A stretch of 64,000 nucleotides of DNA from Candidatus Cloacimonadota bacterium (GCA_021157525.1 JAGGWK010000060.1:11293-75292); one strand, 5' to 3'. Shown: positions 6,978-48,483, numbered from the stretch's first letter. Translations and numbers: made by a program. The notes: a model not told the origin generated them from the sequence alone.

Positions 6978-8765
6978 ATGAAGCAACGAATCATCATTCT
7001 TTGGATACTGCTCCTTGCCTGCTCAGTAGCCTTTGGCGCCGAGCTGGAGGTACAGTCATACGTCGATCGCACCACTGTGGGTTTAGATGATTATCTGAAA
7101 TTCACCGTAGAAGTTACAGGATCTAAAGCGAACAAAGCTTCCATTCCCAGCCTCAGCGGTCTGAAGGGATTTCGGAATCTTGGCGCCTCCACATCGTCAT
7201 CATCCAGCTACTCGGTGGTAAATGGCAAAATGACATCCAGTGTTTCCGCCAGTACCACCTTCACATTACAACCTCTGGCTACGGGAGAGCAGATTTTACC
7301 GCCGGTGAGTGTGCAATTCAAAGGCAAAACCTACACCACCAAACCAATTCGCATCAAGGTAAAGGAAGGGAGCACAGAACCGGCTCCACCGGTTTCTCAG
7401 CAGATGCAGCAAAGGGGAAGCACCCATCAATCCTCGGATAAGTTAGCAGATAATATGTTCATTATCGCCGATGTTTCACAAAAATCGGTGTATAAATCTC
7501 AGCCCATCACGGTAGATTTTTACCTCTATACCAAGTATGATGTGCGCAATCTTTCTTTTGGTGAAGAGTCTTCTTACAGCGGTTTTTGGAAGGAAATCAC
7601 CTATACTCCCGACCATATTAATTTCCGCCGCACCACCTATGATGGCCAACTTTTCAATGTGATGCGGCTGCGCAGTATTACCCTGCTTCCCACCCGCAGT
7701 GGAGAACTATCCATTCCTCCTCTGGAGATGCTGATAGATGTAACCGTGCCAGCCCGCAGTTTCTTTGATTTTGGCTCCACCAAACGTTACACCATCCGCA
7801 GTAAAAAAATTCCTATAAAAGTGCGGGACATCCCTCTGGAAGGAAGACCGGAAAGCTACAGCGGCGCAGTGGGTTCGTTCACCATAAAAAGTGAAATCAG
7901 TGATACTCAAGTGAAATCCGGGGAATCCCTTACCTATACCATCACCATATCGGGTAGTGGAAATTTCAGCAATATCGAGCCGCCGGCTATGCCGGATGTT
8001 AATCATCTGCGCTTTGTTGAGCCGGAAATAACCAACGACGTTTCCAGCGGAGGCGTGAAGGGTAGCAAAGTCATCCGTTCTCTGGTGATTCCGGAAGAGC
8101 AGGGAACCTACACCATCCCAGCCCTGAGTTTTGCCTATTTCGATCCTCAGCAAAAAGCCTATAAAGTTCTCAAAACTGCTACTCACACCATCAATGTGGA
8201 CAAGGGTGAAACCCTCTACATCCCATCAGCCGGAGCTCAAAACGTGGTTCACATAGAAGGCGCAGACATCGGTTTTATTCAGATTCCCGACACGGTAACG
8301 TCTTTTCATCTTTACTTTGATGCAGCAGGATTCTGGCTCATCTGGCTTATTTTGGCTCTGTGCATTCCGGCAGCTGTGATCTTTGCAAAAGAGCAGGAAA
8401 AATTGCGTGGAAACCTGCATTATCAGCGGAAGCGCCTGGCTACACGCATCCTGAAGAAATACCTGAGACAGGCCACCGAATACGCACAAAACAAAGACAG
8501 AGCCTTTTACACCGCCGCTCAAACCGGACTTCTTACCTACCTTGCCGATGTGTTACACATAGCCCGCGGCAGTACCGCAGACGCAGTTTTGCTTGAGCTG
8601 AAAAGCCGTATCGATTCAGCAACGCTGTATCAGCGCACCAGTAGCATGATAGAGCGTTGCAACCAGGCGCGCTTCATGCCGGGAGGCTTTGCCAGCGAAA
8701 ACATCCCTCGGGATTTTGAATTGCTGAAGGAAATCATGGCCGACATCGCCAAACTGAAATTGTGA
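6978..8765 (+). CDS. batD: BatD-like oxygen-tolerance protein
   Basis: It has a signal peptide, a large extracytoplasmic region, a late TM (FWLIWLILALCIPAAVIF) and a cytoplasmic tail. Its position after batC fits BatD, and GAGGAAATC lies before ATG 6978. Confidence 0.8.
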   Translation: MKQRIIILWILLLACSVAFGAELEVQSYVDRTTVGLDDYLKFTVEVTGSKANKASIPSLSGLKGFRNLGASTSSSSSYSVVNGKMTSSVSASTTFTLQPLATGEQILPPVSVQFKGKTYTTKPIRIKVKEGSTEPAPPVSQQMQQRGSTHQSSDKLADNMFIIADVSQKSVYKSQPITVDFYLYTKYDVRNLSFGEESSYSGFWKEITYTPDHINFRRTTYDGQLFNVMRLRSITLLPTRSGELSIPPLEMLIDVTVPARSFFDFGSTKRYTIRSKKIPIKVRDIPLEGRPESYSGAVGSFTIKSEISDTQVKSGESLTYTITISGSGNFSNIEPPAMPDVNHLRFVEPEITNDVSSGGVKGSKVIRSLVIPEEQGTYTIPALSFAYFDPQQKAYKVLKTATHTINVDKGETLYIPSAGAQNVVHIEGADIGFIQIPDTVTSFHLYFDAAGFWLIWLILALCIPAAVIFAKEQEKLRGNLHYQRKRLATRILKKYLRQATEYAQNKDRAFYTAAQTGLLTYLADVLHIARGSTADAVLLELKSRIDSATLYQRTSSMIERCNQARFMPGGFASENIPRDFELLKEIMADIAKLKL

Positions 8766-30645: not shown

Positions 30646-30719
30646 TGGTTGGGCTAGAAGGAGTTGAACCCTCACATACGGAACCAGAATCCGCTGTACT
30701 ACCATTATACTATAGCCCA
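30646..30719 (-). tRNA. tRNA-Gln (anticodon CTG)
   Basis: Hand fold: acceptor TGGGCTA/TAGCCCA (U1-A72 as in bacterial tRNA-Gln), anticodon loop TTCTGGT, T-loop TTCAACT. CCA is encoded. Confidence 0.85.
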
Positions 30720-30727
30720 GAGAAACA

Positions 30728-30802
30728 TGGTTGGGCCGGGAGGATTCGAACCCCCGCATACATGGACCAAAACCATGTGTCTTACCACTTGACGACGGCC
30801 CA
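30728..30802 (-). tRNA. tRNA-Gln (anticodon TTG)
   Basis: Hand fold: acceptor TGGGCCG/CGGCCCA, anticodon stem CATGG/CCATG with loop TTTTGGT, T-loop TTCGAAT. CCA is encoded. Confidence 0.85.
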
Positions 30803-30825
30803 ACAAAACTTCTCAAAAATATAGC

Positions 30826-30916
<91 letters not shown>

Positions 30917-30933
30917 AAAATAGCAAAGATCAA

Positions 30934-31019
30934 TGGCGGAGGATGAGGGACTCGAACCCCCAAGGGCATAGCCCGGCGGTTTTCAAGACCGCTGCCTTAC
31001 CAATTAGGACTAATCCTCC
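30934..31019 (-). tRNA. tRNA-Ser (anticodon TGA)
   Basis: Hand fold: acceptor GGAGGAT/ATCCTCC, anticodon stem GCGGT/ACCGC with loop CTTGAAA, long variable arm. CCA is encoded. Confidence 0.85.
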
Positions 31020-35136: not shown

Positions 35137-35994
35137 ATGGAAAGATCCGCACCAACACAGAATCGGCTTTCAGGCATCGTGATTGCACTGATTATCTCGC
35201 TGTTGCTGCACCTATTGGTCATTGTGGTGATCTCCTTTTTGCAAACCGATTTCCTTCATCATTTTGTGCAGGATGTACCATTGGTACCGCCATCCCGGGA
35301 AAAACCGCTGGTTTTCGAGTTGGTAGAAACCCCGGATGTTCCCTCTTCACCACCAGAGCAACCAACCGATCTGGCATCAGATACCGCCACTTCAGCCCGG
35401 GATGCGGTGGACAAACAGCTTCCCATCAGTGATACACCTTATGCCGAAGGAACTGCCAGCACCAGAGATGTCACAGCTCCCGCAAAGCCTGAGAACCAGC
35501 CCCGGGCAGAGCCGTCCAGCGCAACTGCTGCCGTTGAAGGACAGGGGAAAGAAACCGCCACTCCGGCAGAACAGCAGCCGGTAGTAATTCCTCAGATGCT
35601 GGCATCGAATCAGCAGAGTTTTAGAAATCTGCGCTCTGAGGTTGCATCCAGAGGCGGGATGATGTTGAACACCTATCAGTGGAAATATGCACCATACCTG
35701 CTCAAGCTCAAACGGAGAATTTCCGGTAACCTGAGACCGCCCTACGCCTTTACCCGACTGGGCATCATCGGCGGTCAAAACCTTATCCGCTTCCGCATCA
35801 ACCCCGATGGAGCTATTGTGAATGTGACGCTTTTGTGGAGCAATTCCCACGAATCCCTGGAGCAGAGCAGCATAGCAGCCATAGAAAAGTCCCATCCATT
35901 TTTGCCGCTTCCTGCGGGATTTCCCAAAGAATACCTGGAGATAACGGCCCTCTTTACGTACAATAACAAACCACCAACAGAAGGTAGAAAATGA
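35137..35994 (+). CDS. tonB: TonB family energy transducer
   Basis: It has an N-terminal TM, a Pro/Ala/Glu-rich spacer and a C-terminal TonB_C-like domain, and it is followed by exbB-exbD. Confidence 0.75.
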   Translation: MERSAPTQNRLSGIVIALIISLLLHLLVIVVISFLQTDFLHHFVQDVPLVPPSREKPLVFELVETPDVPSSPPEQPTDLASDTATSARDAVDKQLPISDTPYAEGTASTRDVTAPAKPENQPRAEPSSATAAVEGQGKETATPAEQQPVVIPQMLASNQQSFRNLRSEVASRGGMMLNTYQWKYAPYLLKLKRRISGNLRPPYAFTRLGIIGGQNLIRFRINPDGAIVNVTLLWSNSHESLEQSSIAAIEKSHPFLPLPAGFPKEYLEITALFTYNNKPPTEGRK

Positions 35995-36614
35995 AAGAAT
36001 TTATCGCATTACTCCAGCAGGGCGGCATCATTATGTATCCGCTACTGCTCTGCTCGGTGATCTCCCTGGCCATCGTTATCGAGCGCTGTTTTACATTACG
36101 GCACAAGCACATAATCGTTCCGGAGATCGAGAAGGTTGTACGCTCTATTCGCACAGCCGAAGACATCCCGTTGGCACTGAAGGTCTGTAGTCAGAACAAA
36201 GGGCCCTTTGCCGCTATTATGCGGGTAGGACTGGAGAATCACACCCTCCCCGCTGCGATTCTCAAAGAGGAAATCACCAACCACGGACGCCAGCAGGTAC
36301 GGGTGCTGGAGCGGGGATTGGTGGTATTGGAAACCGTTGCTGCGGTGAGTCCCATCCTGGGCTTGCTGGGAACGGTGGTAGGGATGATCAAAGTGTTTAA
36401 AGTCATCTCCTTGCAAGGTGTGGGAGAAGCATCCGCTCTATCGGGGGGTATTTCCGAAGCACTCATCACCACAGCAGCAGGTTTGACAGTGGCCATCCCG
36501 ACCGTGATATTTTATAATTTTCTCTCCCAGAAAGCCGAGAACCTGATAATGGACATTGAGGATAATGCCAACAATCTGGTGCGGACGATTCGAGAGTTTT
36601 CCAAGGATGCATGA
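35991..36614 (+). CDS. exbB: MotA/TolQ/ExbB proton-channel protein
   Basis: It has 3 TM helices and the conserved segment LGLLGTVVGMI...ALITTAAGL. It overlaps tonB by 4 nt. Confidence 0.88.
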   Translation: MKEFIALLQQGGIIMYPLLLCSVISLAIVIERCFTLRHKHIIVPEIEKVVRSIRTAEDIPLALKVCSQNKGPFAAIMRVGLENHTLPAAILKEEITNHGRQQVRVLERGLVVLETVAAVSPILGLLGTVVGMIKVFKVISLQGVGEASALSGGISEALITTAAGLTVAIPTVIFYNFLSQKAENLIMDIEDNANNLVRTIREFSKDA

Positions 36615-37012
36615 TGAATTTTCGTGAAAAGAAGAGACGTAACGTCACTATCAATATCACTTCCCTCATCGACGTGGTATTGCTGTTGCTCATCTTTTTC
36701 ATGCTTACCACCACCTTTTCCGAGCAGCCGGGGATGAAGCTGGAATTGCCGGAAGCCAAGAGTTTTGGAACCCAGCGATTTTCTCAGTTGGAAGTTTCCA
36801 TCGGTGCTGATGGCACTCTCGTCCTCAATGGCAACAAGATTGCCACCGAGGATTTGAAGCAGGCAATCACCGACCTGGTTCCTCAGATCGAAGAAAAAAC
36901 CATCATCCTGCGGGCTGATAAAGCGGTGCAACACGGTGTGGTGGTGATGGTGATGGATGTGGCCCGCAGTGCAGGAATAGAAAAGGTGGTAATCGCAGCA
37001 AAACCCCGATAA
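36611..37012 (+). CDS. exbD: ExbD/TolR biopolymer transport protein
   Basis: The N-terminus is INITSLIDVVLLLLIFFM, and the C-terminal region (ILRADKAVQHGVVVMVMD) is periplasmic. It overlaps exbB by 4 nt. Confidence 0.88.
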   Translation: MMNFREKKRRNVTINITSLIDVVLLLLIFFMLTTTFSEQPGMKLELPEAKSFGTQRFSQLEVSIGADGTLVLNGNKIATEDLKQAITDLVPQIEEKTIILRADKAVQHGVVVMVMDVARSAGIEKVVIAAKPR

Positions 37013-37016
37013 AAGC

Positions 37017-37038
37017 AGTTTCATGATATCATGAAACT
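37017..37038. repeat. perfect 22-nt palindrome AGTTTCATGAT|ATCATGAAACT
   Basis: Read directly from the sequence, 5 nt after the exbD stop. No U-tract follows, so it is either a weak terminator hairpin or a dimeric protein-binding site. Confidence 0.7.
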
Positions 37039-37081
37039 ATATCGAGACAGGAAAACGGTGTGAACGTGACTTTAAAAATGT

Positions 37082-37312: not shown

Positions 37313-38290
37313 CTATTTAAATTCCCAGACGAAGGGATCCGGGCTATTGAATACAAAACGTTTCAGATAGGAAATCATGGTGTGGAGATCATAACCTGCA
37401 GGCACCACAAAGTAATCGTATTTGGCGACGAGAGCGGCAAATTCGGCATTTTCCATGAGGGCTGCATCGACGAAATAGATACCATGGCCAGGAAGGCTTA
37501 AGTCGGATGCATCCGTTGGCTCCACCTGACGATACAACACAACGTCCTGCTCTTTCAGCAGCTCTTCTTTGAGATGAGAAAAGTATTGGCCGTTGGATGG
37601 AGTAGCCAACACCACCAGTTGCTGCCCTGGTCGGAAGACATCAATGAGACGCTGTTGTTCCTCTGGAGCACTGGTGTCGGAAAGACCTGCCAGACCCCGC
37701 ACACCGCTCACGATAAACCATAGGGCAATAAGCACCGAGGCGATGCGTCCGATGAGTTTCAGCTCTTTTACTTTACTGAAAAAACCCACAAATCCCATGG
37801 GAACGAGGTATAATGTGGTGCCCAGAAAAAAGCCGAAAAAGAGGGTTGCGCCGTTTATGGGCCCCCCGAGATTCACCGCTTTTGAGAGAGCAATAAGAAA
37901 GGATGGACAGAAATTTACTCCCGTGAGCACCCCCAGCAAAAAAGCGCTTTTGGTGATGTTTGCCATCTTCGGAATGTGACATTTTTTTGCTTTTTGATGG
38001 GATCGTACTGCGGTGAGCAGCAGATACAATGAGAGTAAAATATAGGCAATGGATGTGAAAAACGTTCGGTTGATTTCGGTGATATTTTTGCCCAGATAGC
38101 CAGCGACAGCACCAAACGCCAAGTAGGTAAAGAAGCGGCCCAGAGAAATTTCCATTACCGCAAGGAAGGTTTTACCCACTTTTTTGTCATCGCTCAGGAG
38201 ATAGGGCAGGTAAATGGGTGAGCAGGTTGCCAGACACACCACCCCCGTGGCCAGTCCTAAACCCCAGCCTTCGATCAAACTTTGTATCAT
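37313..38290 (-). CDS. DsbD_2/CcdA-type polytopic membrane protein with a ~110-aa C-terminal soluble extension
   Basis: It has six predicted TMs. Cys lie in TM1 (VCLATCSPIYLP) and TM4 (VNFCPSF), as in thiol-disulfide electron-transfer membrane proteins. It is the last gene of the ferredoxin/FN3 operon. Confidence 0.65.
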   Translation of the reverse strand: MIQSLIEGWGLGLATGVVCLATCSPIYLPYLLSDDKKVGKTFLAVMEISLGRFFTYLAFGAVAGYLGKNITEINRTFFTSIAYILLSLYLLLTAVRSHQKAKKCHIPKMANITKSAFLLGVLTGVNFCPSFLIALSKAVNLGGPINGATLFFGFFLGTTLYLVPMGFVGFFSKVKELKLIGRIASVLIALWFIVSGVRGLAGLSDTSAPEEQQRLIDVFRPGQQLVVLATPSNGQYFSHLKEELLKEQDVVLYRQVEPTDASDLSLPGHGIYFVDAALMENAEFAALVAKYDYFVVPAGYDLHTMISYLKRFVFNSPDPFVWEFK

Positions 38291-38299
38291 AGTTGTTCC

Positions 38300-39427
38300 T
38301 TAATATCTGTAAGCAAGGCTGATGCCGTGGGTAAGCCGATCTTTCACAGTATCCCGCAACAGCACGTCGTAGCGATAGCCGATGCGCAGGGAATCATGCA
38401 GCAAAAAGCCCCCCAGTTCCCCGCTGATACCCATATCGTTCACCGACACATTGCCCAGATAATAGTTGTATTCTGCAAAGAAAACAAGCTGCCACAGGTT
38501 GTACTGCATGTTTGCCTTGAGAAGGGTTTCTTCATCGTAAAAATAGTGTTTGGCAGCCAGCCGGATACGATTGATCCGATTGCCCTCTGTGCTGATGGTG
38601 CGCTGAACGATGGATTCCCCAAAGCTTTTTCCCAGCAGCATTTCGTTGTTTTCGGTATCGTACCAGTTTTGGATATCCAGTTTTTGCACCAGCATCCAGT
38701 CTGGATGCAGCTTTGTGCTGAAGCGGGTAGTATAATGCACAAAATAAGGCACGTCGTCATAACGATCCGATTGTCCCAGGATGAGCTGCTGCTGCCAGAT
38801 GTGAGGACGTCCAAAGTAGTGCATCGTCTGTATCCCGGCACCGGCGGTATAGTAGTTAAAAACGTCTTCCTCATTCAAATCGTCGAAATGCTCAAGGGCG
38901 ATTACCGGCATCCAGGTATCGCTTTGCATCCAGGTAAGAGTCACATTGTTGCGGGTATCGAACTCGGTAATATCTTCGTCGCCGGAGTAATCGCGGATAT
39001 TGTAGCGCAGGTTTGCATCCATCAGAAGGTTCCCCACCTGATAGTGAATATTGGCGCCGAGGCCCCAGCCATTTTCCAGCAGGTATTCGCCATTAACACC
39101 GCCGACGTGGGATGGGAAATTATCTGCCGGAGAGAGTTGAACGCTGCCGAAAAATTGAACCATCCCGCCGGATAATGTACGGGTGAGGGATAGTTTGTTA
39201 CGCAGATAGTTGCGTAGATAGGTCTCTTCCAGAGTCTCTGTTTCTTCGCTGAATTTGGCAAAGGTGATGTTATCGATCTGCCATTGGCCAAATTTTTGCG
39301 TGATATAGGAGGTCATCCGAGAAGAAAAGCCCTCTTGGTTATCGGAGACAACGGAGACGGAAATCTGCTGAAGGGCCGAGAGGGAAAGCATCCCAAAAAG
39401 AATACTAAAAAGAAAGGACTGGCGCAT
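38300..39427 (-). CDS. predicted outer-membrane beta-barrel protein
   Basis: It has a signal peptide (MRQSFLFSILFGMLSLSALQ), alternating aromatic/polar strands and a C-terminal ...HGISLAYRY beta-signal. I moved the start to ATG 39427 (AAGGAG RBS). Confidence 0.65.
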   Translation of the reverse strand: MRQSFLFSILFGMLSLSALQQISVSVVSDNQEGFSSRMTSYITQKFGQWQIDNITFAKFSEETETLEETYLRNYLRNKLSLTRTLSGGMVQFFGSVQLSPADNFPSHVGGVNGEYLLENGWGLGANIHYQVGNLLMDANLRYNIRDYSGDEDITEFDTRNNVTLTWMQSDTWMPVIALEHFDDLNEEDVFNYYTAGAGIQTMHYFGRPHIWQQQLILGQSDRYDDVPYFVHYTTRFSTKLHPDWMLVQKLDIQNWYDTENNEMLLGKSFGESIVQRTISTEGNRINRIRLAAKHYFYDEETLLKANMQYNLWQLVFFAEYNYYLGNVSVNDMGISGELGGFLLHDSLRIGYRYDVLLRDTVKDRLTHGISLAYRY

Positions 39428-39437
39428 TGGGGCTCCT

Positions 39438-39683
39438 TTAGTGGATGGCGTTTTCCGGACAGACGTCGGCGCACTTGCCACAGGATACGCATTTGCTTGA
39501 GATAATAACGGGTTTATCGCCGTCGTAATCGATGGCGTTGTGGGGGCATACGTCGTAGCATTGGCCGCAGGCAACGCAGGATGTTTCATCTATTTCGTAG
39601 CTGGCGCCGGTGAGCTTTTTGCAGCTAATGAAGAAGAGCCCTAACATCAACAGTACCAGCAGGATGGGTAAAATTCGTTTCAT
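39438..39683 (-). CDS. small lipoprotein-type 2x[4Fe-4S] ferredoxin-domain protein
   Basis: I moved the start to ATG 39683 (AGGAG RBS). It has a signal peptide with a lipobox-like FFIS|C, then CVACGQCYDVCP and CVSCGKCADVCP. Confidence 0.7.
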   Translation of the reverse strand: MKRILPILLVLLMLGLFFISCKKLTGASYEIDETSCVACGQCYDVCPHNAIDYDGDKPVIISSKCVSCGKCADVCPENAIH

Positions 39684-39691
39684 GGATACTC

Positions 39692-39925
39692 CTACTTTAT
39701 GGCGTTGTATGTACAGGTGGTGATGCACATTTTGCAGTCGATGCAGACATCGGTATCGATCACCGCTTTGCCATTTTGCAGACTGATAGCCTGGACGGGA
39801 CAGTAATTGACACAATCGCCACAGCCGACACAGCTTTGTTTGGAAACCTCCGGCTTGCTCTGAACCATGGCAAACAGCACGATGGTGGCCAGCAACAATA
39901 TCGCTATCACTACGTTCTTTTTCAT
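39692..39925 (-). CDS. small signal-anchored 2x[4Fe-4S] ferredoxin-domain protein
   Basis: It has an N-terminal hydrophobic segment (MKKNVVIAILLLATIVLFAMV), then CVGCGDCVNYCP and CIDCKMCITTC. Confidence 0.7.
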   Translation of the reverse strand: MKKNVVIAILLLATIVLFAMVQSKPEVSKQSCVGCGDCVNYCPVQAISLQNGKAVIDTDVCIDCKMCITTCTYNAIK

Positions 39926-39938
39926 CTTATATCCTTTA

Positions 39939-42416
39939 TTAATATTCTACTACTTTCAGTTTTATGGCATTTCGCGGACACCAGCTCACGCAATCACCGC
40001 AGGCTACACAAGCATCGGGATCGATGGTGGCATAGGAGCCGTGGTCAGTGATGGCATCTTCAGGACAGTGACTTACACAGTGGCCGCAGCCATTACAGGG
40101 GGGACGGTTTATCTGGTACACCAGTTTTCCGGCCGGAGAATTTGAGATTTCCGACGTATTCCCATTGTCGTCGGTGGTACGGATGGCGAAGTAGATAACT
40201 TCGCCAGAGTTCAGGCCATTCACGTCGCAGGTTTGTGATGATCCGCCAGCCAGTGGAGCCGGGGGATTGCTGAAGATATTGGCATCATCCCAGTTTGCAT
40301 CGGTGATGGGTTCATCCCAGTACCGGATGTCGTAAATCAGGGCTGTGCCGGTGGTTCCATCATCGCCGGGTGCCGTCCAGCTGATGCGGATAGTGCTGGC
40401 ATTGATTGCCAAACCGGCGACGACAGCCAAATCTGAGATGGTGGCCGGTGGCGTGGTATCTTCGGTAAGCTGGGCGATGGCAATGTTCGAGATGGCCGCC
40501 GCATTGTTATTTTCGTCATAGGCCTTGATGGCAAAATAGTAGTCCATTCCCATGGAGAGACCGGTTACCTGGTAGGTTTCGGCAGAGCCGGATGGAGCCG
40601 GAGCAGGTAGATTGGGCAACAGGTCGGCAGTTTCCCAGTTTGCCTCGGTAATCAGTGCGTTGGATGAGCGAATCTGGTAATGATCGGCAAGGCCGTCCAA
40701 TCCGTCATCTCCCACAGCGCTCCAGCTGAGGGTAATAAAAGAGTCACCTGATTCTGCCGCCAGATCGCCGATAGTGGCGGGTGGTGTAGTATCCTCCAGC
40801 AAGGTGGCAGAGGCATTGTTTGATGCTTCGGAGGTATTTTGAGAATCGTCGGTAGCTCTGATGGCAAAGTAGTACTGGATGCCAGGTTGTGGCACATCGG
40901 TAAGATAGCTTTGCACCGTGCCGGCCACTTGGGGTGCGGGTGGGTTTGGTAATGTGGTGGCATCCTGCCAGTTTGCAGTGGTAATCTGGTTTTCCGAGAT
41001 TTTTATCTCGTAGGAAACCGCCGTTCCTTCATCGCCGTCATCACCGGGAGCTGTCCAATTCAGAGTCATATCGTTCTGGGATGCCGTTACCGCCAGATCA
41101 CTGATAACAGCCGGAGGAACGGTATCGGGGATTTCGGTAGTTTCGCCGGATGGCACGTTGCTCAGGGACGATGCGTTCAGGGCGTCATCCAGTGCGATGA
41201 TGGCAAAATAGTAGGTAGTAAGGGGTTGCAATCCTTCTATCAAAAGTGCTTCGGTAGTGCCGGCTGTCTGAGGTACCATGTTTTGGGGGTAGGCTTCCAG
41301 TGCAGCCCAGTTGTCTGGTGTGATGACCTCGGTATCCACTTTGATGATGTAGGCCGATGCGGTTCCGATATTCTGGTCGTCACCCACAGCGGTCCAGTTC
41401 AGCAGGATGCTGTTCACCGATAGCGAGGCAACAGCCAGGTCGTCAATCGGTGCCGGCGCCATGATATCCCCGATGATCTGAGCCTGTACAACATTGGAGA
41501 TGGCGGCGTAATTGAGGGCATCATCGTAGGCGCGGATGGCAAAATAGTAGTTTTGCTGCAAAGGCAGATCGCTGATGATGAGGGTTTCGGCATCTCCTGC
41601 AGCAGCGGGAACCAGAGACTGGCTGTAGGTGGATGCATCCGGCCAATTGTCTGAAGTGATTTCCTGGGTGCTGTAGCGAATATCATAGCCGGCGGCAAGG
41701 CCTTCCATGGCATCGTCACCTACCGCTGTCCATCCCAGAGTGATGGTGGCTTCGGCAGAAGTTGCCGTAAGGTCTGTGATCTCTGCCGGAGCTGTGGCAT
41801 CGATGATCTCTCCAGCCACCAGGACCTGGCACACCGAGGTGCCGCTGGAGTGGTTCACCTCGTCGAAGGCTTCCAGTTCCACTGATATCTGGGCATTTTG
41901 GGGAAGATCCCGAATAATCCAGTTTTCTTCAAACCCGGCAGGAGAAGGTAGCGGAAGGATAAAATTGTAGGCAATGGGATTGTTCAACGTGTCCCGCAAT
42001 GTAAGGCCATATCGGAAGGAGTTGCCAGATGTTCCGTCATCTCCGGTAGCCACAAACTGTATCTGCACCACGCCGATGGAATCTGAAACGACGGAAAAAG
42101 AATCGATGGCGGCAGGAGCAACGACATCCGGGGTGGTGGTAAAGGCGTCTTCCGGACACTGAAATTGGTCAACACAGCGCATGCACTGTACGCATGCATC
42201 CTGATCGATATAAACGGTAAAGGTGCGGGGATCTTTTTTTATGGCGTCATAGGGACAGGAAAAGTCATCCAGACATTCGTAGCAACCCACGCATCGGGAG
42301 AACTCTACCCGAACCGGTTGTGAATCCGGCCCGACTTTCCGGGCATCATCACTACAGCTGATAACAGTAAAGAAAACAATGACTATCGCTACAACTAACA
42401 AAAAACTCTTATTCAT
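39939..42416 (-). CDS. 825-aa lipoprotein: N-terminal ferredoxin-like Cys domain, six FN3-like repeats, C-terminal 2x[4Fe-4S] ferredoxin domain
   Basis: The start is ATG 42416 (GAGGA RBS; the listed upstream start is TTG). It has lipobox VIS|C and N-terminal CVGCYECLDDFSCP and CVQCMRCVDQFQCP. Six repeats carry W(T/S)A.GDD...Y.IRY...YYFAI. The C-terminus has CNGCGHCVSHCP and CVACGDCVSWCP. Confidence 0.8.
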   Translation of the reverse strand: MNKSFLLVVAIVIVFFTVISCSDDARKVGPDSQPVRVEFSRCVGCYECLDDFSCPYDAIKKDPRTFTVYIDQDACVQCMRCVDQFQCPEDAFTTTPDVVAPAAIDSFSVVSDSIGVVQIQFVATGDDGTSGNSFRYGLTLRDTLNNPIAYNFILPLPSPAGFEENWIIRDLPQNAQISVELEAFDEVNHSSGTSVCQVLVAGEIIDATAPAEITDLTATSAEATITLGWTAVGDDAMEGLAAGYDIRYSTQEITSDNWPDASTYSQSLVPAAAGDAETLIISDLPLQQNYYFAIRAYDDALNYAAISNVVQAQIIGDIMAPAPIDDLAVASLSVNSILLNWTAVGDDQNIGTASAYIIKVDTEVITPDNWAALEAYPQNMVPQTAGTTEALLIEGLQPLTTYYFAIIALDDALNASSLSNVPSGETTEIPDTVPPAVISDLAVTASQNDMTLNWTAPGDDGDEGTAVSYEIKISENQITTANWQDATTLPNPPAPQVAGTVQSYLTDVPQPGIQYYFAIRATDDSQNTSEASNNASATLLEDTTPPATIGDLAAESGDSFITLSWSAVGDDGLDGLADHYQIRSSNALITEANWETADLLPNLPAPAPSGSAETYQVTGLSMGMDYYFAIKAYDENNNAAAISNIAIAQLTEDTTPPATISDLAVVAGLAINASTIRISWTAPGDDGTTGTALIYDIRYWDEPITDANWDDANIFSNPPAPLAGGSSQTCDVNGLNSGEVIYFAIRTTDDNGNTSEISNSPAGKLVYQINRPPCNGCGHCVSHCPEDAITDHGSYATIDPDACVACGDCVSWCPRNAIKLKVVEY
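40122..42131 (-). repeat. tandem array of six ~111-codon FN3-like coding repeats
   Basis: The DNA motif GATGGC(A/G)AA(A/G)TAG(T/A)(A/T) (antisense of YYFAI/IYFAI) starts at 40182, 40527, 40860, 41199 and 41534, a period of 333-345 bp. The first repeat is divergent. Confidence 0.8.
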
Positions 42417-42770
42417 ACACCATCCTCTTTTTGCTATCAAACCAACATTCAGGTAACCAGAGAGGTGTCAAATGCAAAATTTCCGGTAAATCCGGAATAC
42501 ATACTTATGCAAGATGCCTGGAGAGGGGAACAAAGTATTTTCGTAAAAAATCTTAGATCCGGATAAAGAGTGTATTATTCACGCCACTGCTTTGTATTCA
42601 CCCGAATCCCGCTTCCAGAGCAGAGATCAATTATTTCTTGAAACGTTAGGAAGAGGTTTTGGACAAAACATAGCCTCCATTGGTAGCCCGTCCAGATCAT
42701 CCAGCCAGAGGCGATATCATGCTATTTAAGTAGATATTAACACCAGAATCCCCTTTTAGCTATCCAGAAG

Positions 42771-48138: not shown

Positions 48139-48216
48139 TGGGGTGGCTGAGGGGATTCGAACCCCCGACTCCAAGAGCCACAATCTTGTACTCTAACCAA
48201 CTGAGCTACAGCCACC
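48139..48216 (-). tRNA. tRNA-His (anticodon GTG) with an encoded G-1
   Basis: Hand fold: an extra 5' G opposite C73, acceptor GTGGCTG/CAGCCAC, anticodon stem CAAGA/TCTTG with loop TTGTGGC. CCA is encoded. Confidence 0.85.
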
Positions 48217-48229
48217 ATAAAATTACTTA

Positions 48230-48306
48230 TGGTACGCCAGCGGGGACTCGAACCCCAGACCTACGGATTAGAAATCCGTTGCTCTATCCAGCTGAGCTAC
48301 TGGCGC
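48230..48306 (-). tRNA. tRNA-Arg (anticodon TCT)
   Basis: Hand fold: acceptor GCGCCAG/CTGGCGT, anticodon stem ACGGA/TCCGT with loop TTTCTAA. CCA is encoded. Confidence 0.85.
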
Positions 48307-48315
48307 ATAAAAAAA

Positions 48316-48392
48316 TGGTAGCGGCGCAGGGACTTGAACCCCGGACACTCGGATTATGATTCCGATGCTCTAACCAACTGAGCTACGCCGCC
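48316..48392 (-). tRNA. tRNA with anticodon CAT (elongator Met, or Ile2 if lysidine-modified)
   Basis: Hand fold: acceptor GGCGGCG/CGCCGCT, anticodon stem TCGGA/TCCGA with loop ATCATAA. It lacks the 3 G-C initiator signature. CCA is encoded. Confidence 0.8.
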
Positions 48393-48406
48393 ACTCATTA
48401 AAAAAA

Positions 48407-48483
<77 letters not shown>

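Follow-up and report, generated by a model that had tools for sequence, protein, structure and literature searches.

A 64,000-nucleotide (nt) stretch of the genome of a Candidatus Cloacimonadota bacterium (GCA_021157525.1, JAGGWK010000060.1:11293-75292; hereafter the window) carries on its minus strand, at positions 37313-42416, an operon of five genes, P1 to P5. The encoded proteins are three predicted exported proteins built on ferredoxin-type iron-sulfur (Fe-S) motifs, a predicted outer-membrane barrel and an inner-membrane protein of the DsbD_2 family. The five-gene cluster is a conserved module and not a chance neighbourhood, and we consider it real and undescribed, with no known system to which it could be assigned. 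We propose, tentatively and with slightly less than an even chance of being right, that it is a self-contained envelope module that leads electrons from the inner membrane to the cell surface without heme. The five genes were called as open reading frames (ORFs), with lengths in amino acids (aa), and are listed here with the parts of P1.

39939-42416, minus strand: P1, 825 aa from its ATG, ORF call
42354-42416, minus strand: P1 signal peptide and lipobox (aa 1-21), Cys21 in TVIS/C and then SDD
42117-42299, minus strand: P1 N-terminal ferredoxin-like domain (aa ~40-100), two Cx2Cx2Cx5CP motifs
40122-42116, minus strand: six FN3-like repeats of P1 (aa ~101-765), from repeat motifs and Pfam fn3
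39942-40121, minus strand: P1 C-terminal 2x[4Fe-4S] ferredoxin domain (aa 766-825), two Cx2Cx2Cx3CP motifs
39692-39925, minus strand: P2, 77 aa, ORF call
39438-39683, minus strand: P3, 81 aa, ORF call
38300-39427, minus strand: P4, 375 aa, ORF call
37313-38290, minus strand: P5, 325 aa, ORF call

The tight packing of these genes described in the first-pass annotation of this DNA, with gaps of 13, 8, 10 and 9 nt, was reproduced from the ORF coordinates, and a Shine-Dalgarno motif (AGGA/GGAG-type) was located 6-8 nt 5' of all five starts. In the P1 ORF an alternative TTG start, 8 codons 5' of the ATG, is also open. The CxxCH heme motif was absent from all five proteins, as had been claimed, and no cytochrome family of Pfam was matched by any of them. 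Public Cloacimonadota metagenome-assembled genomes (MAGs) contain identical proteins, labelled there only as '4Fe-4S binding protein', 'hypothetical protein' or 'sulfite exporter TauE/SafE family protein'.

P1 had been described as an 825-aa predicted lipoprotein (lipobox VIS/C) with Cys clusters at both ends of a stalk of six FN3 repeats, and both the Pfam matches and the motif positions agree with this architecture. Specifically, fn3 was matched in 5 stretches with 97 bits, and six W/F-x-A-x-GDD motifs recur along the stalk at a spacing of ~110 aa. Residues 769-820 of the C-terminal domain scored above the Pfam cut-offs for Fer4, Fer4_6, Fer4_7 and Fer4_9. The N-terminal domain is a variant with Cx5CP spacing that aligns to the 2x[4Fe-4S] domain of RnfB (E 2.5e-5); a homolog search with the first 110 aa of P1 returned the self-fragment only. 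The lipobox was present in 32 of 33 P1 orthologs, with T/S at position +2 in 25/32 and D at +3 in 29/32, while at least two acidic residues follow the lipobox Cys in 10/32 and the P1 of the window itself reads C-S-D-D. In Bacteroidota, and validated there only, a surface-lipoprotein export signal with the consensus SDDDD or SDDFE has been described (PMC5080379). The C-[ST]-D pattern behind the P1 lipobox resembles this signal, whose use in Cloacimonadota would be putative. The C-terminus of P1 (window positions 39942-39965) and those of its orthologs share a conserved hydrophobic-x-hydrophobic-x-Y ending (KVVEY, AVVAY, WVIGY). Such an ending is reminiscent of the beta-signal of outer-membrane proteins and unusual in a ferredoxin domain, and might allow P1 to dock on the barrel by strand pairing.

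P2 and P3 were each found to consist of a clostridial-type ferredoxin part of 55 aa behind an N-terminal export signal, in keeping with the earlier description of two ~80-aa proteins made of a signal anchor or lipobox and a 2x CxxCxxCxxxC(P) ferredoxin. More specifically, P2 (8 Cys) begins with MKKN and a hydrophobic stretch, a Sec-type signal peptide or signal anchor, ahead of its 2x CxxCxxCxxxC ferredoxin. P3 (9 Cys, the ninth being that of the lipobox) has the lipobox FIS/C followed by KK and a canonical 2x CxxCxxCxxxCP ferredoxin. Both proteins scored above the Pfam cut-offs for Fer4, Fer4_6, Fer4_7 and Fer4_9, the Fer4 match of P3 reaching 66.6 bits, so that the Cys motifs of P1, P2 and P3 alike match Fe-S profiles. 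Against the Protein Data Bank (PDB), mature P3 matched the polyferredoxin MvhB, FwdF, RnfB and the 55-aa ferredoxins 1FDN and 1CLF.

The export signals of P2 and P3 depend on the start codons chosen. In the NCBI entries MCD6182178.1 (58 aa, P2) and MCD6182177.1 (69 aa, P3) translation begins at internal Met codons and the hydrophobic N-termini are lost, and database searches for exported ferredoxins would miss the two proteins because these public starts drop the signal peptide and the lipobox. Were these entries correct, P2 and P3 would be cytoplasmic ferredoxins and their signal peptides an untranslated leader, an annotation artefact that we regard as very improbable. Shine-Dalgarno motifs lie 6-8 nt before the long-form ATGs and none lies before the internal ones. 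The operon spacing of 8-13 nt likewise arises from the long forms, and the K-rich/hydrophobic N-terminal segment and the P3 lipobox Cys are kept in more than 60 orthologs, many of which have no internal Met. The same export logic is, moreover, met in P1 and in a type IX variant of the module described below. Cytoplasmic P2 and P3 from internal starts were rejected on the Shine-Dalgarno positions and the N-terminal conservation, which support the longer forms as the probable products. Across orthologs the export signals that the first-pass annotation had read in the ferredoxin proteins were kept: P2 orthologs have in common a K-rich n-region and a hydrophobic core, and the lipobox Cys of P3 is found in 62 of 64 orthologs, with K at +3 in 44/62.

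The predicted cluster ligands themselves are under strong conservation. Of 68 distinct orthologous P2 domains, 67 retain the full set of 8 Cys; among the P3 orthologs 57/62 do so, and in the other 5/62 the second Cys of motif 2 is replaced by Asp. This substitution was observed in Cloacimonadaceae MAGs (loci L062 and L064-L067), whose second P3 cluster motif reads C-x-Q-D-G-x-C-x3-CP, and it suggests an Asp-ligated or [3Fe-4S]-convertible cluster in that sublineage. Asp as a cluster ligand at the Cys-II position is a well-known substitution in the ferredoxin of Pyrococcus furiosus. The Cys conservation and the Asp swap appear to fit Fe-S ligation better than disulfide formation or generic metal binding.

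No family of Pfam or NCBIfam was matched by P4. A word-indexed search recovered two close relatives only, and an exhaustive HMMER search found just 27 representatives among 1.84 billion proteins; as far as these searches reach, P4 is a new, small family. It contains no Cys and ends in ...LAYRY, which together with its signal peptide had led to its designation as an outer-membrane barrel. The AlphaFold2 model bears this out, being a confident plugless barrel (pLDDT 90.2, pTM 0.79, from a 21-sequence alignment) in which a signal helix is followed by ~20 beta strands, with the longest loops at 13-15 residues. On structure comparison the fold lies nearest to the barrels of TonB-dependent transporters. 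Neither a plug domain nor a TonB box was found in Pfam or in the model, and P4 differs from these transporters, which have 22 strands and a plug. A plugless barrel with loops this short would therefore be an open hole in the membrane unless a partner fills its lumen. By a rough standard-geometry calculation, occupancy of the ~25 Å lumen of a 20-strand barrel by a ferredoxin domain of ~24 Å (6 kDa) would be feasible.

P5 matched DsbD_2 (PF13386) with 80 bits (cut-off 24.9, residues 11-192), and the model and the loop charges agree on a 325-aa CcdA-like inner-membrane protein with six transmembrane (TM) helices. In an alignment of 23 sequences the invariant Cys were Cys19 and Cys23 in TM1 (CLxTC[ST]PIYLPYL), Cys104 in a loop (KCH) and Cys128 in TM4 (NFCPSFL). 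Profile and alignment therefore uphold the assignment as a DsbD_2/CcdA-type protein with Cys in TM1 (CLATCSP) and TM4 (FCP), to which Cys104 is an addition. From the loop charges, Cys104 is predicted to be cytoplasmic and the acidic, Cys-free C-terminal domain of ~125 aa periplasmic; this domain was modelled as an alpha/beta fold of four strands, for which structure comparison gave no informative neighbour. In longer P5 variants (P0008, P0047 and P0112, of 455, 458 and 438 aa), found in loci L008, L034, L035, L041 and L082, the C-terminal alpha/beta domain is duplicated, with conserved Cys in the linker that joins the copies (CP...C-S-[ST]-C); in several cases the variant lies outside a full module, by itself beside a 1786-aa NosD/beta-helix protein. 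The CxxC linker points to possible thiol or cluster chemistry on the periplasmic side.

In order to examine the conservation of the cluster, genomes (one per species) were scanned with a P5 profile, which gave 80 loci, and ORFs were called in all of these and searched with the window proteins and profiles. Nearly all loci are from Cloacimonadota, with a few from Fibrobacterota, Chitinispirillaceae, Coatesbacteria and Delongbacteria. The complete Cloacimonadales genomes OY759729.1 and OY782781.1 are among the carriers of the module. The core genes were counted in the 74 non-redundant loci whose upstream sequence extends for 2.3 kb or more, and the surface components and NapH-like proteins in the 58 loci where it extends for 6 kb or more.

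P2 homolog: 66/74 loci
P3 homolog: 62/74 loci
Barrel-sized ORF directly before P5: 60/74 loci
P2, P3 and barrel-sized ORF together, with P5: 58/74 loci
P1-like lipoprotein of the ferredoxin-FN3-ferredoxin type, 595-1720 aa, 3-14 repeats: 22/58 loci
Signal-peptide ferredoxin of ~178 aa with a type IX sorting domain: 13/58 loci
Exported protein of ~176 aa with a C-terminal ferredoxin domain: 33/58 loci
NapH-like Fer4_5 membrane protein: 16/58 loci (25/74 overall)

The genes are accordingly conserved together well beyond close relatives, in Cloacimonadota and some Fibrobacterota, with P5 alone in a minority of loci. Dozens of relatives, with protein identities of 40-57%, share the gene order in unrelated flanking contexts; no flanking gene is conserved, and no Pfam family occurs in more than 8 of 124 flanking proteins. 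By sequence the barrel candidates, 66 in number, form two groups of distant relationship, both found at the same operon position, and the C-terminal residue of the candidates is F in 45, Y in 5 and W in 2. Fibrobacterota versions have a 508-aa NapH-like polyferredoxin after P5, and the Chitinispirillaceae version a 1045-aa FN3 protein with a different type of FN3 and a terminal ferredoxin domain. In the type IX variant the surface ferredoxin of the relatives carries the sorting domain Por_Secre_tail (31.4 bits, cut-off 27), which Pfam found in none of the five window proteins. The variant provides a second, independent argument for a ferredoxin domain placed, by prediction, at the surface. The NapH-like protein of the relatives matched Fer4_5 with 65.9 bits. 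Together with the ~176-aa exported ferredoxin, it is a better candidate than P5 for the entry of electrons at the inner membrane.

The first-pass annotation had cast P5 as an inner-membrane reductant relay. Its DsbD_2 match and the Cys in TM1 and TM4 stand, and the role changes: rather than being the main relay, P5 more plausibly supplies thiol reductant to the exported Cys-rich apoproteins in the manner of CcdA, or helps in their maturation. Unlike the NapH-like protein, P5 occurs in every version of the module. By analogy with CcdA in cytochrome c maturation we assign P5 to keeping apoferredoxin thiols reduced; it may also have a direct part in electron entry.

A P5 of this kind could also be accommodated in an extracytoplasmic redox chain that is not a conduit through the outer membrane. 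The ferredoxins would then act for a reductase of the periplasm or surface whose gene lies elsewhere, or would protect or repair envelope thiols, and P4 would be a dedicated translocon or anchor for the surface protein and not an electron channel. The CcdA-like character of P5 and its conserved Cys in TM1 and TM4 would suit such a chain, as would the periplasmic CxxC linker between the duplicated C-terminal domains of the long variants. Pfam found no catalytic domain in the module, and dedicated barrels for surface-lipoprotein export are in use in other bacteria, Slam being an example. The barrel is, however, retained in the type IX variant; since a type IX cargo has its own export route, a lipoprotein translocon would be unneeded there, and P4 as a dedicated lipoprotein translocon only was rejected on this ground. 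Nor is a conserved reductase gene adjacent to the module, and a surface protein made of ferredoxin domains and spacers only is hard to explain without electron delivery. We consider this explanation unlikely.

On the heme-free electron path that we favour, P1, P2, P3 and P4 would be exported through Sec in an unfolded state. P5 would carry reducing equivalents from the cytoplasm across the inner membrane and keep the 8-16 Cys of each apoprotein reduced, such that [4Fe-4S] clusters could form after export, much as CcdA serves apocytochromes. P3, as a lipoprotein facing the periplasm, and P2, soluble or anchored, would act as low-potential periplasmic carriers. The lumen of P4 would be filled by one small ferredoxin domain. 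P1 would be flipped to the surface, with one of its ferredoxin domains beside the lipid anchor at the mouth of the barrel. The other domain would be carried at the end of the six-repeat FN3 stalk, whose flexibility would let it shuttle electrons, while tethered, to partner cells or insoluble acceptors. The variable length of this stalk among relatives (3-14 repeats) fits what might be expected of a tether. In many relatives electrons would enter via the NapH-like membrane Fe-S protein and a further exported ferredoxin, an entry point that is not part of the operon in the window. Since P1 is composed of redox domains and spacers, with no catalytic domain, its electrons would more likely go to partner cells or insoluble acceptors than to one particular soluble substrate. 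Overall, what the first-pass annotation called a trans-envelope redox conduit is supported as regards the Fe-S motif matches, the family of P5, the export signals and the co-conservation of the genes; the localisation of the proteins, cluster loading, the occupancy of the barrel, and electron flow and its direction are put forward here as proposals.

The ecology of the phylum appears to fit such a conduit. According to the literature, Cloacimonadota lack cytochrome bc1 and cytochrome c oxidase. They are suspected of direct interspecies electron transfer on account of few hydrogenase and formate dehydrogenase genes, and only e-pili genes have been proposed as a route (PMC8892533). We also considered a wider proposal, by which the module would be the first trans-envelope conduit made entirely of ferredoxin-type Fe-S proteins. 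It would comprise barrel-threading ferredoxins and an FN3-tethered or type-IX-anchored surface ferredoxin, would have its clusters assembled after Sec export with a CcdA-like reductant, and would serve cytochrome-free syntrophs (Cloacimonadota, Fibrobacterota) in extracellular or interspecies electron transfer. Taken as a whole, this proposal is rather unlikely.

Several points weigh against an electron path of this kind, and the most serious of them concerns cluster loading. Bacterial 2x[4Fe-4S] ferredoxins are as a rule cytoplasmic, or Tat-signalled if periplasmic; Tat is used by all established periplasmic Fe-S proteins, and no system is known for inserting Fe-S clusters outside the cytoplasm. 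The n-regions of the Cloacimonadota P2 and P3 orthologs are of the KK/KR Sec type, or precede a lipobox, and are without an RR motif. Sec-type rather than Tat-type signals, as predicted here, would be a real biochemical problem for loading the ferredoxins. Furthermore, no thioredoxin-fold partner for P5 (of the ResA, CcsX or TlpA type) is encoded in the operon according to Pfam, and the NapH-like protein is absent both from the operon and from the rest of the 64-kb window. No sequence relationship of P4 to porins of the MtrB/PioB/OmbB type was found. Lastly, the FN3 stalk has no cofactors, so that long-range transfer would need physical swinging, and [4Fe-4S] clusters at the surface would be extremely oxygen-labile. 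As to the loading problem, we speculate that sulfidic, Fe(II)-rich habitats would allow clusters to assemble spontaneously on reduced apoproteins. RR-type signals were found in one locus only, from Chitinispirillaceae (L083, MAG JBNLDC010000008.1), where the P2 and P3 homologs (ORFs at 7220 and 7435) have Tat-like N-termini (RIRRRTILKVF, NRRTVLRQLG). Such n-regions would be as expected of cofactor-loaded periplasmic proteins and are counted in favour of the electron path; the module may use different export routes in different phyla.

Sec export, by which the proteins arrive as apoproteins, would also be compatible with a role in capture. In this case, where the surroundings are sulfidic, the exported Cys-rich apoproteins would capture aqueous FeS clusters, Fe(II) or thiophilic metals and pass them inward via the barrel for iron or sulfur nutrition, or sequester them for detoxification, with P5 as reductant or as a metal or cluster transporter of the LysE superfamily. 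DsbD_2 proteins carry the generic annotation 'sulfite exporter TauE/SafE', and the family belongs to a transporter superfamily with many metal carriers. A surface lipoprotein with a barrel resembles the nutrient-capture pairs of Bacteroidota, and genes for ExbB, ExbD and TonB adjoin the operon in the window. The module of one relative is flanked by HMA, P-type ATPase and ArsP genes, and HMA and E1-E2 ATPase neighbours make up 3/124 flanking proteins. These metal-gene and TonB neighbours are, however, not conserved, and P4, being without plug or TonB box, offers no means of energised import. The strict two-cluster geometry, with its CP motifs and Cys-to-Asp swap, suits stable redox cofactors over transient cargo, and the NapH-like redox partners of the relatives point to electron transfer. 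We therefore regard metal or cluster capture as quite unlikely.

The electron path was then compared with known systems. Its layout is like that of MtrCAB of Shewanella and the Pcc conduit (OmbB-OmaB-OmcB) of Geobacter, in that a plugless barrel is encoded beside redox proteins. Those systems, however, use multiheme c-type cytochromes and a barrel of 26 strands, whereas the module has 2x[4Fe-4S] motifs without CxxCH and a barrel of ~20 strands that matches no family in sequence. Also unlike them, its surface protein bears redox domains at both ends of an FN3 stalk, and a DsbD_2 protein is part of the operon. The parallel with porin-cytochrome conduits drawn in the first-pass annotation thus holds for the layout and the plugless barrel and fails for heme and for sequence homology of the barrel. 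DmsEFAB of Shewanella oneidensis provides a precedent for an Fe-S ferredoxin-type subunit, DmsB, that is located outside the outer membrane and fed through a barrel. In that system the cofactors of DmsAB are loaded in the cytoplasm before Tat export and type II secretion, and electrons cross via a decaheme cytochrome; the present module differs in having Sec or lipoprotein signals and neither a heme protein nor a molybdoenzyme.

P5 is, like the CcdA of System II (CcdA/ResA), a six-TM protein of the DsbD superfamily with Cys in TM1 and TM4 that is encoded beside Sec-exported proteins, and we liken the module to System II because exported Cys must stay reduced to receive a cofactor. In contrast to CcdA, it matches DsbD_2 (PF13386) and not the DsbD family, and has the extra invariant Cys19 and Cys104 and a Cys-free periplasmic alpha/beta domain; the thioredoxin-like partner of System II is missing, and the clients would be apoferredoxins instead of apocytochromes. 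As in NapGH, NosGH and MauMN, relatives of the operon pair a NapH-like Fer4_5 membrane protein with an exported ferredoxin, a pair absent from this window. NapG-type proteins are Tat substrates that feed periplasmic enzymes, with neither an outer-membrane barrel nor a surface component. As in the SusCD and BtuBG pairs of Bacteroidota, a lipoprotein is encoded with a barrel; the polar and acidic residues behind the P1 lipobox resemble the export signal of surface lipoproteins, and the P4 fold is closest to the barrels of TonB-dependent transporters; set against these pairs, P4 has no plug or TonB box and the lipoprotein carries redox motifs in place of a ligand-binding fold. The alternative surface ferredoxin of the relatives shares Por_Secre_tail with type IX secretion cargo. 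Literature searches on ferredoxins that are exported or extracellular or serve as type IX cargo, on porin conduits without cytochromes and on Tat in Cloacimonadota gave no description of the system, in agreement with the earlier statement that no described system of such composition was known.

Two further features of the operon region were annotated.

42417-42770, minus strand: upstream intergenic region of 353 nt, presumed site of the operon promoter
37016-37039, minus strand: terminator-like hairpin ~270 nt 3' of P5, between the operon and the convergent exbD; weak consensus match only

A scan of 42417-42770 for the sigma-70 consensus gave no more sites than shuffled sequence, the number of terminator-like sites in the region was not above the shuffled expectation, and an Rfam scan of the operon region gave no match. 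Genes for TonB-like, ExbB and ExbD proteins lie at 35137-37012 on the plus strand, convergent to the operon; the two closest relatives, on NCBI MAG contigs and a Logan contig, share this adjacency, and more distant loci lack it. Directly upstream of the operon is a gene for a 215-aa GPP34 protein (Golgi phosphoprotein 3-like, PF05719; 42771-43418, minus strand), which is syntenic in the closest relatives. Some loci (L062, L065, L066, L067, L069 and L080) have directly upstream of the module a ~830-aa dihydropyrimidine-dehydrogenase-like (DPD-like) protein (Fer4_20, Pyr_redox_2, DHO_dh, Fer4), accompanied in L062, L065 and L066 by a molybdopterin-binding (MoCoBD) oxidoreductase. These genes could be a cytoplasmic electron source in the sublineage of these loci or simply neighbours. 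From the scan of 124 flanking proteins, TonB-ExbBD, the HMA/ATPase genes and the DPD-like/molybdoenzyme genes were rejected as parts of the module, being local. A 297-aa ORF antisense to P4 (38282-39175, plus strand) is unsupported and most likely a shadow ORF. Between 40001 and 42000 the G+C content rises locally (0.544 against ~0.48), as does the GC skew (+0.145). The P1 FN3 repeats, rich in Ala, Gly, Asp and Thr, lie at the same place, and their composition, not foreign DNA, would seem to account for the rise. Elsewhere in the window two minus-strand tRNA clusters were noted, Gln-Gln-Ser-Ser (30646-31019) and His-Arg-Met-Met (48139-48483).

Extracellular electron transfer in Gram-negative bacteria is understood almost wholly via multiheme cytochromes. 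For Cloacimonadota, which abound in anaerobic digesters and anoxic waters, the module is a concrete and testable candidate for interspecies electron transfer. It is also at odds with the rule by which Tat export, after cluster loading, is the only route of Fe-S proteins to the periplasm: either the clusters are assembled after Sec export or a classical ferredoxin fold serves some other purpose outside the cytoplasm, and either would be new biochemistry. If the electron path proposed here is true, every cytochrome-based screen for electroactive organisms would miss such systems, and the module would provide small, heme-free parts for engineering electron export.

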